Of a DNA stretch of 64,000 nucleotides, positions 60,485 through 62,989 are shown piece after piece. Source of the DNA: Escherichia phage HY01. Each line of letters opens with the position of its first letter. Positions within the stretch are counted from its first letter, which is position 1. The stretch is from the sequence record NC_027349.1; one strand, written 5' to 3'. The position numbers were made by a program, and so were the translations under genes. A model generated the notes under the pieces. It had not been told where the DNA came from and ran no database searches. It saw only the letters and a list, made by a program, of their open reading frames with translations.

Positions 60485-60698
60485 ATTCTACTTCCTCACC
60501 TGTTCCCAAATCATATTCAACTAAACGAATAGGCTCATGAATGCCATATCCTTGAACAGAAATTTCTGTCGTAGGATAAATTCCATTAATATCACCCATG
60601 TTCCACGCTTCATTAAATTGCTGTTCGCCTGAATTACTAAACCACTCGGCGAAAGCATTTAGCACATCTTTAGAACCTTCAATAATTATCTTTGCCAT
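60477..60698 (-). CDS. hypothetical small acidic protein
   Basis: 73-aa ORF. Confidence 0.4.
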   Translation of the reverse strand: MAKIIIEGSKDVLNAFAEWFSNSGEQQFNEAWNMGDINGIYPTTEISVQGYGIHEPIRLVEYDLGTGEEVEYD

Positions 60699-61060
60699 TA
60701 CAAACTCTCAGTAAAGGTACGAGCGATAACGTCGCGCTGCTGTTCCGGAGTCAGAGAGTTAAAGCGAACTGCATATCCGGATACACGGATGGTCAGCTGC
60801 GGATATTTTTCCGGATGCTTAACTGCATCTTCCAGAGTTTCACGACGCAGAACGTTTACGTTCAGGTGTTGACCACCCTCAATTTTAACTGTAGGCTGTG
60901 TTTCAATTTCAATTTCACGGGCATGCAAACCATAGAAAATTTCTGGGTCTACAAAAGAGTCCTCTTTAAAAGTTTTAGAGACAATAATTCGTGCTTGAAT
61001 ACCGTCTTCAAAATAAATAGTACCTTTATGCGTGCCTTCAAGAATTTGATATGCTTTCAT
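60698..61060 (-). CDS. autonomous glycyl-radical cofactor (GrcA/YfiD-like)
   Basis: 120 aa; C-terminal about 60 residues [61 protein letters not shown] match E. coli GrcA as recalled. Confidence 0.8.
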
Positions 61061-61070
61061 ATAACCCCTC

Positions 61071-61451
61071 TCAATTAGAAAATAAATTTATCCAAGATTG
61101 CTCTTTAATTAAAAATGGCTCAGAATCATATGCCATTAAACTTTGGGTAATTAGTCCTTTAAAAGGCCCATCAATAAATTCCATGGTAAAATATGGAATT
61201 TTATTCATTAATCTTGCATTAGGAGCAGTGCATAAAACTCTGCATCCTTTGAATACACCTTTTTGTAATTTGTATTGCTTAGGATAAAATTCACTCAAGA
61301 CGTTGTTATTTGCCAAAATTTCAAAATGATTCACCAATTTATTTTTAATAGTTTTTGGCGAAAAATAAAGATATTCGAAAAGTTGCGTGTCTGTCATCAT
61401 TGCATTCCGATTATGAAAAACTGTGGACGAGTAATACCACCAATGCAACAT
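61071..61451 (-). CDS. hypothetical protein
   Basis: 126-aa ORF (start probably internal). Confidence 0.35.
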
Positions 61452-61984
61452 TTACTATTGCAACAGTGGTGCACAGTTTCAATATGAATATCGTAAATTT
61501 TATCCATATCAGGAGATTTAACAGGCTCATCAATTATATACAAAATCCGCGAAAGCGATAAACCTCTGAACTTGCTTCCTTTATTACCGATAAAACTACG
61601 GACAGAATCGGTAAATAAGCGGAATCGAATATCATCGCCAGAATAACGAGAAAATTCTTTTTTAATGTGGCCCGCAGAAATTTTAGCGTAAGCTGAAGTA
61701 TTAGAAAGAACAATAACTGTTCCACCATCATACAGCCAATTAGCAGCAAAGTTAGTCACAGCAGTTGATTTACCGGATTGTCTGCCACCATCTAATCGAA
61801 GTGTGCAATACTGCTTGAGTAAGTCTTCAAATGGTGGGATATAATCGTTTTTACAAATTTCTTCTACTCTAGCATCAGAATGGTGTGTAAAAGCATTCAT
61901 CAGGGATAGATAAGGACCAGTTAAAAATGTTCTCATTTTATTCTCTCTAAATTTGGGCCATTCCATGGCGCATGAATTGTCCAT
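61397..61984 (-). CDS. P-loop NTPase-like protein
   Basis: 195-aa ORF with Walker A GGRQSGKST and a Cys cluster HHCCNSKCC; start may be the internal Met near 61936. Confidence 0.45.
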   Translation of the reverse strand: MDNSCAMEWPKFRENKMRTFLTGPYLSLMNAFTHHSDARVEEICKNDYIPPFEDLLKQYCTLRLDGGRQSGKSTAVTNFAANWLYDGGTVIVLSNTSAYAKISAGHIKKEFSRYSGDDIRFRLFTDSVRSFIGNKGSKFRGLSLSRILYIIDEPVKSPDMDKIYDIHIETVHHCCNSKCCIGGITRPQFFIIGMQ

Positions 61985-62089
61985 TTCTGTATTTACCCAT
62001 TACCGCACTTGGGCTCGACCTTATTACAGGTTGGCGGGAATCCCTCACAGAATCATGAGGTCCAGGTTGTTCCCATATTTCTTATTTGC

Positions 62090-62563
62090 TTATTTGAATG
62101 ATTTAACGTACTGAATAGAACCTTTACTATTTACAAAGGCAATTTTACCATTTTTATTGTACATAGTAGCAGTACGCTGATAACCATAAGTTTGTTTACC
62201 AGATTGATAACCAACTAATGCGAAATTATCTTCGCCCATTTTATTCTGTTTAGCGCGGATGCGTTCATGACCGTGTGCCATAAGAACCTTAGCATCACCA
62301 GTTGAAATTGATCTACGAGTTTTTTCATCTTCAACTGTATTAACAAAGTCGTCAAATGAATCAAATTTAGCATGGGATTTATTATACAGTTTTCCATCTA
62401 CTGCATAATTATATCCCTGTACATCCATCTCAACTTCTGTACCATCATCCAATACAGCAGTGATTTTTTGACCTTTTTTAAATTTCAAAAGATCAGTAAA
62501 AGATTCAGCAATAATTTGAGAATTAATAGCTGCTTCAGTGATAAATTCTTGATATGTTTTCAT
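62090..62563 (-). CDS. capsid-targeted internal protein (IP family), distinct from T4 IPII/IPIII
   Basis: 157 aa beginning MKTYQEFITEA (capsid targeting sequence consensus); between denV and e. Confidence 0.65.
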   Translation of the reverse strand: MKTYQEFITEAAINSQIIAESFTDLLKFKKGQKITAVLDDGTEVEMDVQGYNYAVDGKLYNKSHAKFDSFDDFVNTVEDEKTRRSISTGDAKVLMAHGHERIRAKQNKMGEDNFALVGYQSGKQTYGYQRTATMYNKNGKIAFVNSKGSIQYVKSFK

Positions 62564-62572
62564 ATGTTTCCT

Positions 62573-62989
62573 TTAAATGTAAATATTTTTGCCGTAATAC
62601 TTGTACCAGTGTGGCTTCATTAAAATTTTTTTATCGAGTCGTTGTTGACTCAATTTAATAGCTGATTTGCATGGATTATAATCATTTTTCCATTCTGCTG
62701 GAATATCGCTGATGTCAGGAACTTCAGTATCTTTTATACTAAACCCACGTTTTAAGCATTCCATTATAATGTCTGATTGACGCTTTCGCAAAAATTCTAA
62801 CTTGTCGTAAAAGAACGTAACATGACCAGAACCTAAAATAAACTCGGAAGATATTTTAAAATCTTTAACCCGCTTACCATTTGCCACGTGTTTACGAACT
62901 ATACCAAAAACGCGTGGCAATTCACGGTATTCTGCGATTAAATGTTGATCAGCAAGTTCAGATACTAAAGTCAAATTAATACGAGTCAT
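62573..62989 (-). CDS. denV: endonuclease V (pyrimidine dimer DNA glycosylase)
   Basis: 138 aa [17 protein letters not shown]...; matches T4 endo V family. Confidence 0.9.

Follow-up and report, generated by a model that had tools for sequence, protein, structure and literature searches.

Gene context of the Ip4-vs.8 intercistronic region

The window analyzed here, i.e., the whole stretch of 64,000 nucleotides (nt) of Escherichia phage HY01 (NC_027349.1), belongs to a Tequatrovirus in which the genes nudE, e, denV, Ip4, vs.8, vs.7 and vs.6 are read from right to left (Table 1). This report concerns a small RNA-like element, with a folded size of about 45–50 nt, located between the internal virion protein gene Ip4 and the P-loop gene vs.8. 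The surrounding segment (61300-62700) agrees with phage PEC04 at every position (100% identity), and 799 phage records match it.

The intercistronic region was initially singled out from the sequence alone as a GC-rich segment (61940-62089) with short inverted repeats and without a convincing open reading frame (ORF), promoter or tRNA. A windowed calculation reproduced the elevated GC content, 44.7% versus a window mean of 34.5% (standard deviation 4.3%, 150-nt windows), which corresponds to the 98.7th percentile and is reached by 1.3% of 150-nt windows. The rise is real but modest; the nearby vs.6 gene reaches 0.49. The inverted repeats were all located (CCTCA at 62043, TGAGG at 62056 and GGGAATCCC at 62036), yet they proved to be peripheral to the signal: the first two form a lineage-specific hairpin, GGGAATCCC lacks comparative support, and the conserved core lies at 61990-62040. 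The statement that the segment contains no convincing ORF also held, with vs.8 starting at 61936. ARAGORN detected neither a tRNA nor a tmRNA anywhere in the window, and no promoter-like or terminator-like site was found inside the gap 61937-62089. In a 3-kb search against Rfam 15 (4,227 models), no family matched the gap at E ≤ 10, the tRNA clan included; when 221 nt were searched alone, only two chance-level opposite-strand matches were obtained (10.4 and 9.3 bits vs. thresholds of 45 and 40). The folding stability of the whole 151 nt was unremarkable (z of +0.35 and −0.20 on the two strands, near zero), so that it is the comparison with other phages that provides the evidence for structure.

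Table 1. Coordinates of the element, its predicted parts and the surrounding genes in the HY01 window.
Feature	Position	Strand	Basis or remark
Core motif	61990..62040	-	covariance model R1; 51-nt match, 67.3 bits, E 3e-20; single copy in the 64-kb window
P1 closing helix, 5' strand GCCA	62032..62035	-	pairs with 61995-61999
P1 closing helix, 3' strand U[G]GGU	61995..61999	-	G bulged after the first pair
P2 hairpin ACCU-GUAAUA-AGGU	62018..62031	-	three-way-junction model
P3 hairpin C(G)AGCC-CAAG-UGCGG	62003..62017	-	three-way-junction model
UAA strand joining P3 and P1	62000..62002	-	within invariant GGUAA; A1 columns; retained in diverged second copies
Upstream hairpin CCUCA-UGAUUCUG-UGAGG	62043..62060	-	Tequatrovirus-specific; the CCTCA...TGAGG repeat
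GGGAUUCCC palindrome	62036..62044	-	the GGGAATCCC repeat; without comparative support
Small hairpin AUGGA-CAA-UUCAU	61972..61984	-	tentative; judged by eye, not scored
Hairpin GCCA-UGGAA-UGGC	61957..61969	-	GGA in loop; conserved in T4-like phages only; RNAalifold
vs.8 ribosome-binding region (GAGAGA) and start codon	61934..61947	-	ATG at 61936-61934; PHROG alignment, comparison with relatives
Ip4-vs.8 intercistronic region	61937..62089	-	153 nt, contains the whole element; ORF list; ime09 and PinkRuby annotation; PHROG alignment
vs.8, P-loop	61397..61936	-	179 aa; PHROG 1488, E 1e-78; terminase ATPase similarity weak
Ip4, internal virion protein gene	62090..62563	-	Pfam DUF7412, E 1e-95; PHROG 3155
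denV	62989-62573	-	gene context
Lysozyme gene e	63543-63049	-	gene context
nudE	63990-63580	-	gene context

A conserved core with covariation in its closing helix

The conserved core on the minus strand (ACCUGUAAUAAGGUCGAGCCCAAGUGCGGUAA) lies inside a closing helix, P1. The covariance model R1 was built from 28 distinct sequences (alignment A1), which share about 32 nt, in the RNA sense ACCU-GUAAUA-AGGU-C(G)AGCC-CAAG-UGCGG-UAA, with 16 invariant columns and 9 more that are at least 90% conserved; overall, roughly 26 of its bases can be regarded as invariant. The core is identical at 32 of 32 positions between the window and a Mosigvirus-like locus (L006), in which vs.8 is only 38.5% identical; judged by this comparison, constraint on the core far exceeds that on the neighboring gene.

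P1 changes from lineage to lineage, and its pairs are kept through compensatory changes. In a set of 50 distinct sequences, its three inner positions are paired in 98–100% of cases, with 2–5 pair types each (AU/UA/UG/CG/GC; CG/GC/UA/AU/GU; CG/GC). The helix reads GCCA/U[G]GGU in this window, CCCU/AGGG in Mosigvirus-like phages, CUGGU/A[G]CCAG in Winklervirus, GCGG/C[G]CG in Ivi and ACUA/U[G]AGU in Pylas, and the bulge column holds G in 27 of the 28 sequences of A1, counted by hand. The covariation score of 0.27–0.30 compares with 0.077 in column shuffles, none of 500 reaching the observed value, and with at most 0.08 in slid controls; on the 50 sequences, where the score was 0.27, registers slid by one to three columns gave at most 0.06. 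A MAFFT alignment, which was not fitted to structure, gave the same picture. G-U pairs in P1 occur only on the transcribed strand (GU in 13, UG in 5 and GU in 1 cells); read from the opposite strand, they would turn into A-C mismatches. This supports pairing in the transcript.

Two models were compared for the interior of the element. Model A is a three-way junction, in which P2 (ACCU/AGGU, six-base loop) and P3 (C-AGC(C)/(U)GCG-G) are followed by the UAA that joins them to P1; model B is a rod, in which ACC pairs with GGU, GUA with UGC and GGU with GCC. From the sequence variants we favor the junction as the likelier fold, and both may exist. The P2 stem is invariant but for one A:U to G:C double change in a second copy of the element (L031), and its loop reads G-U-R-R-N-A in nearly all sequences, with AUAAA in SEA1. 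In P3, every sequence in which G or A replaces C in column 29 has a matching base in column 34 (GU, GC or AU), as read by hand, and the pair counts are GU 5, CG 3, GC 2 and AU 1. The P3 hairpin of L058 is GCC-UUUU-GGC, while the second copy of L031 has U:A in place of C:G. Loss of the bulged base is tolerated, which counts for the junction, and this fold is the minimum-energy structure of variants such as L027 and L035. The diverged second copies keep the two-hairpin layout as well: GCCU/AGGC and GUC-CGC-GAC in L031, and clean 8-bp and 5-bp hairpins followed by UAA in L033. For the rod, compensatory changes are confined to P1, and the column-29 variants disrupt it. A possible loop-to-tail pseudoknot (GUAA with UUAC just 3' of P1) fits most T4-like sequences, including GUGA/UCAC in L026, and does not fit the other lineages.

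The structures flanking the core are of narrower distribution. The upstream hairpin shows a compensatory change in L068 (CCUUA...UAAGG), and its stem is retained with different loops in L017 and L071. The palindrome GGGAUUCCC is replaced by GGUAUUCCC in L071 and is absent from non-Tequatrovirus relatives. At the position of the small hairpin, AUGG-loop-CCAU or AUGGA-loop-UCCAU is possible in relatives. The next hairpin has GCC/GGC invariant in 20 sequences and hence no covariation; a downstream block of T4-like gaps, AUGUGCCAWGGAAYGGCCC, lies directly 5' of the vs.8 ribosome-binding site. Applied to the full T4-like gap, RNAalifold recovered only P2 and the GCC/GGC hairpin. The upstream hairpin and the downstream block are absent from other phage families.

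Distribution and genomic contexts of the element

In a sensitive blastn search, the gap matched 1,116 phage records, mostly T4-like phages of Enterobacterales. A stretch of 32–45 nt additionally matched unrelated phages at 86–97% identity, namely Vequintavirus (nimi, rV5), the Kagunavirus-like phage Ivi (45 kb) and the N4-like Klebsiella phage Pylas, and a pattern scan added a further 40 metagenomic stretches with the core. Overall, the element is almost unchanged in more than 1,000 records, which represent at least four lineages of phages. All matches with annotated or called neighbors are intergenic and run in the same direction as these neighbors. Two degenerate patterns had no match in 185,579 species genomes (596 Gb, bacterial and archaeal), and blastn did not find the core in 5,426 complete E. 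coli genomes. PLSDB returned a single match, a 137.5-kb record, whose size suggests to us the genome of an rV5-like phage. As far as exact patterns and blastn can detect it, the family thus appears to be confined to virulent phages of Enterobacterales. Several database entries, i.e., ‘Campylobacter phage’ records of 60–141 kb (MG065682, MG065662, MG065676) and the 137.5-kb E. coli ‘plasmid’ CP057073.1, match rV5-like coliphage and look mislabeled or contaminated.

In T4-like loci, the gene 5' of the element varies (Ip4, denV, ipIII-like, ipII-like and other internal-protein genes), while the downstream gene is a vs.8 homolog in nearly all of them, with identities as low as 33%; six loci have an internal-protein-like gene between the element and vs.8. 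The tRNA cluster of T4-like phages is located about 6 kb upstream on the same strand. Outside this group, tRNA genes are usually found less than about 1.2 kb away; where they are present (in rV5-like and N4-like loci and in several unclassified contigs), their distance is 46–1183 nt and they share the strand of the element without exception.

Two tandem copies are present in Karamvirus-like loci, the second of them diverged and located about 110 nt further downstream (L031 5091-5139, L034 9133-9181, L080 475-523 and, in L033, downstream of 273-323), with CCCUCUC before and GUUUACA after each copy. In Ivi and L037, the element comes after the endolysin gene and is followed by a terminator at a distance of about 85–110 nt. 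Ivi has about 340 extra bp after the endolysin gene (L004 1716-2055 vs. L044 at about 700), holding a 24-codon ORF, the terminator and the motif; since this segment is absent from its relatives, other Kagunaviruses included, the motif reached Ivi as part of an insertion. In the N4-like loci, the motif is embedded in a non-coding region of about 900 nt, in which stems of 16–20 bp (CACAACAGGUAAGAGCAUUG...CAGUGCUCUUUCCGUUGUG) recur and flank variable inserts, together with a tmRNA-like tag sequence (ANDDVVLMAA, ...AAUGCAAACGAUGAUGUUGUUCUGAUGGCUGCUUAA; L054 7252-7339 in Pylas and L042 1916-2003 in a gut contig). The tag stretch scored 33.7 bits against the permuted-tmRNA model RF04321, below the threshold of 47, and ARAGORN found no tmRNA in this tag region. 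A subgroup of rV5-like loci (L056, L066, L082) has a direct repeat, UAGAGGGCUUGAWAGUGC, about 75 nt on either side of the core.

Some Tequatroviruses have exchanged the element for another module. In Pu-Krd-SF5 and its relatives, an early-promoter cassette, TTTACT-N17-TAGTAT, has supplanted the stretch extending from the internal-protein gene as far as GGTAAATACAG and stands in place of the core upstream of vs.8 (L087 850-905). The same cassette is present at other sites in other T4-like phages, as for a mobile promoter of the PeSL type. Given this replacement, the element can be considered modular and dispensable.

Comparison with known RNAs

No riboswitch or trans-acting small RNA has been characterized in T4 (PMC3014915). 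The core sequence was found in no paper by a literature search, which did not cover the supplements of the catalog of 10,006 viral structured RNAs (PMC10690425), and the literature on vs.8 and denV, on T4 small RNAs and on phage RNAs near tRNA clusters held nothing relevant. The element resembles the T4 RNAs RNAC and RNAD in being phage-encoded, non-coding and co-transcribed, and in other phages it likewise occurs beside tRNA clusters. It differs from both in its locus, about 6 kb from the tRNA genes of T4-like phages, and in its far wider distribution, and from RNAC in having no likeness, compared by eye, to the probe sequence printed in PMC9697503.

Phages also carry larger structured RNAs beside tRNA genes, namely GOLLD, ROOL and tmRNA. 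Unlike these, the present motif spans about 50 nt, and none of their models matches it. A kinship of the window gap with tmRNA was rejected, its local alignment to E. coli ssrA being no better than shuffles; the N4-like flank of L054 gave a weak signal in the same comparison (27 vs. 18.6 ± 1.9 shuffled), and blastn of the L054 region found no ssrA in E. coli. The 9-mer GUGCGGUAA is presumably shared with E. coli RNase P RNA, which we take to be a coincidence. A type III antitoxin or CRISPR repeat mimic was also discarded, as the core had no bacterial occurrence in the pattern search of 185,579 species genomes or the blastn search of 5,426 E. coli genomes.

Interpretation and alternative explanations

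Taken together, the covariation in the closing helix bears out the view, one of those offered by the original prediction, that the segment is a structured RNA, and we consider it very probable that it is a selected, structured, non-coding RNA element. At the level of sequence, the comparisons establish a module that is conserved, strand-specific, horizontally shared, modular and dispensable. Horizontal acquisition, also proposed at the outset, applies in the limited sense that a core of about 32 nt is common to unrelated phage families. Our best guess is that the module is an autonomous RNA that binds a factor or ligand, or that serves RNA processing. The linkage to tRNA genes, the intercistronic position and the replacement by a promoter cassette lead us to lean towards RNA processing, stability or a stable product.

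The following mechanism is proposed tentatively and would have to be regarded as one possibility among several. The module may fold on its own, most likely as the three-way junction, and its fixed loops and junction would probably be recognized by a partner common to all these infections, for instance a small ligand or a protein or RNase of enterobacteria. Recognition could then set the fate of the carrying transcript, by processing to a stable RNA, by creating a defined end or by protection. In T4-like phages, the effect would fall on the vs.8 leader, and in the other phages on tRNA-cluster transcripts. For the combined reading, in which a non-coding structured RNA of an undescribed, phage-only family is carried by the Ip4-vs.8 transcript of the minus strand and acts through such recognition, we see an even chance of being correct.

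Several points weigh against this reading. For the sequence of the window itself, the rod is the more stable fold (−10.0 kcal/mol vs. −0.6 to −2.2 for the junction), and it is compatible with 88% of cells. As P2 and P3 hardly vary, their pairing is read from few sequences. The near-identity of the core between families could in part reflect recent horizontal transfer rather than constraint. Pu-Krd-SF5 and its relatives do without the core, the covariance model finding none even with filters off, and the partner and the mechanism are guesses.

We file the element as a new family among the conserved but orphan structured RNAs that phages encode, and there is a real possibility that it represents a new functional class. 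A bolder proposal, which we hold to be doubtful though possible, is that the core represents a new functional RNA class limited to virulent enterobacterial phages (a ribozyme, a ligand- or protein-dependent switch, or a decoy against tRNA-directed defense), which in T4 is hidden under an over-extended vs.8 annotation and which spread horizontally among Straboviridae, Vequintavirinae, Schitoviridae and Guernseyvirinae. The element is a concrete candidate, more conserved than the adjacent gene and common to otherwise dissimilar phage families. It offers a target of about 50 nt along with natural core-less variants, and it could inform on RNA processing, RNA-based regulation or counter-defense in virulent phages. 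The presence of tRNA clusters in phages may also become easier to explain through their link to the element.

Among the alternatives, a cis-acting leader of vs.8 fares best, though we still rate it as rather unlikely. The element would then be a riboswitch-like or protein-controlled switch, in which alternation between junction and rod is relayed to the downstream hairpins and the ribosome-binding site. Whatever gene precedes it, the T4-like element is always upstream of a vs.8 homolog, the downstream block AUGUGCCAAGGAAUGGCCCC is conserved beside the vs.8 start, and two mutually exclusive folds both suit the conserved sequence. The small, very conserved core and its 5'-leader position in T4-like phages are likewise reminiscent of small riboswitch aptamers. 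However, phages outside the T4-like group have no vs.8, and the element shares neither a downstream gene nor an expression platform among them, the neighbors there being tRNA clusters, endolysin genes and long non-coding regions rather than one gene class. The internal-protein-like gene that separates the element from vs.8 in six loci, the natural variants that hold the downstream block and vs.8 without the core, and the absence of an Rfam riboswitch match also speak against a switch. The original prediction had suggested a leader of the P-loop gene, a role that the position in T4-like phages would fit.

Somewhat less probable is a small self-cleaving ribozyme or an RNase site that cuts polycistronic transcripts, giving the vs.8 mRNA its own 5' end and releasing tRNAs or tmRNA-like RNAs elsewhere. 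With 45–50 nt, a compact three-stem form, a variable closing helix and a fixed multi-stem core, the phage-borne element has the general build of small ribozymes such as hammerhead, twister and the hepatitis delta virus (HDV)-like group. It is found near tRNA clusters in phages and beside the tmRNA-like gene in N4-like loci, and HDV-like ‘theta’ ribozymes have reportedly been found beside phage tRNAs. The promoter cassette that replaces the core would likewise give vs.8 a fresh 5' end. Against this, no ribozyme model of Rfam 15 matches at E ≤ 10, the hammerhead CUGANGA/GAAA core is lacking, the stems are invariant, unlike those of hammerhead and twister ribozymes, and no cleavage site can be named. 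Three resemblances seen by eye were not supported by Rfam models and were rejected: a twister-like GGUC..CCCAAGC.CGG.UAA, a mapping onto the HDV fold, and a hammerhead-like CUGAGUGA that relatives outside Tequatrovirus have in their upstream block.

We consider it improbable that the element is a decoy RNA of virulent phages that blocks a host factor, for example a tRNA-directed defense nuclease, an activity that would account for the linkage to phage tRNA genes. Such a role would suit a sequence that is limited to Enterobacterales phages, common to unrelated families, linked to tRNA clusters and absent from host genomes, as well as dispensable and modular like many counter-defense loci; owing to the downstream terminator in L037 and Ivi, the element may be a stand-alone small RNA there. 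Nevertheless, it has no likeness to a tRNA arm, a CRISPR repeat or a type III antitoxin repeat, neither ARAGORN nor the models for tRNA and tmRNA give a match, and no target can be named.

A DNA-level recombination cassette without RNA function, bordering the hypervariable internal-protein cluster, is very unlikely. PeSL cassettes are short conserved intergenic units at the borders of variable modules (PMC2839356, PMC4122927), and the present element is likewise located where upstream genes swap (Ip4, denV, ipIII-like, ipII-like), has internal-protein genes inserted on either side and is replaced in some phages by the promoter cassette, with a breakpoint at GGTAAAT. PeSLs of the T4 group combine an AGNA-loop-TCNT stem-loop with a TTTACW-N17-TAYWAT early promoter (PMC4122927). 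The gap has a stem-loop (62043-62060) and a variable-module border but no promoter, and hence the element is not a PeSL. Moreover, its core is conserved across phage families with compensatory changes; the compensation in P1, the G-U pairs on one strand and the occurrence in phages without an internal-protein cluster would be left unexplained.

A coding function, either as the N-terminus of a 216-aa vs.8 as in T4 or as a small ORF, can be set aside almost entirely: vs.8 is annotated with 651 nt across the element in the T4 records (L025 1231-1881, T4T; L086 691-1341, T4) and PinkRuby has a 102-nt ORF annotated there, but the frame that the T4 records join to vs.8 (a 33-aa ORF at 61947-62048) is open only in T4, whereas in the window TAG terminates it and vs.8 lies in another frame, the PHROG profile begins at MRTFL, the indels among relatives are not multiples of three, and the core recurs in unrelated intergenic contexts. 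The PHROG 1488 profile (177 positions) covers residues 3–179 of the 179-aa product, which places the start at 61936-61934, and the ime09 annotation also gives vs.8 as 540 nt. Since the family profile and the relatives indicate a gene of 540 nt, the vs.8 start in the T4 records probably lies 111 nt too far upstream. Nor is the segment the N-terminal part of a gene at 61397-61984, as the 195-aa ORF starting at 61984 adds only 16 unconserved codons.

Neighboring genes

No Pfam family matched the vs.8 protein. The vs.6 gene (60698-61060, minus strand) encodes a GrcA/YfiD-like autonomous glycyl-radical cofactor, which we take to be the known T4 protein Y06I; it has the highest GC content nearby, which suggests acquisition from the host. 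In the denV-Ip4 interval, PinkRuby (L002 2781-3098) has an extra insertion of about 334 bp with a 318-nt ORF, which is also present in ESh33 and JLBYU22. Its occurrence in such close relatives is further evidence that the neighborhood is an insertion hotspot.

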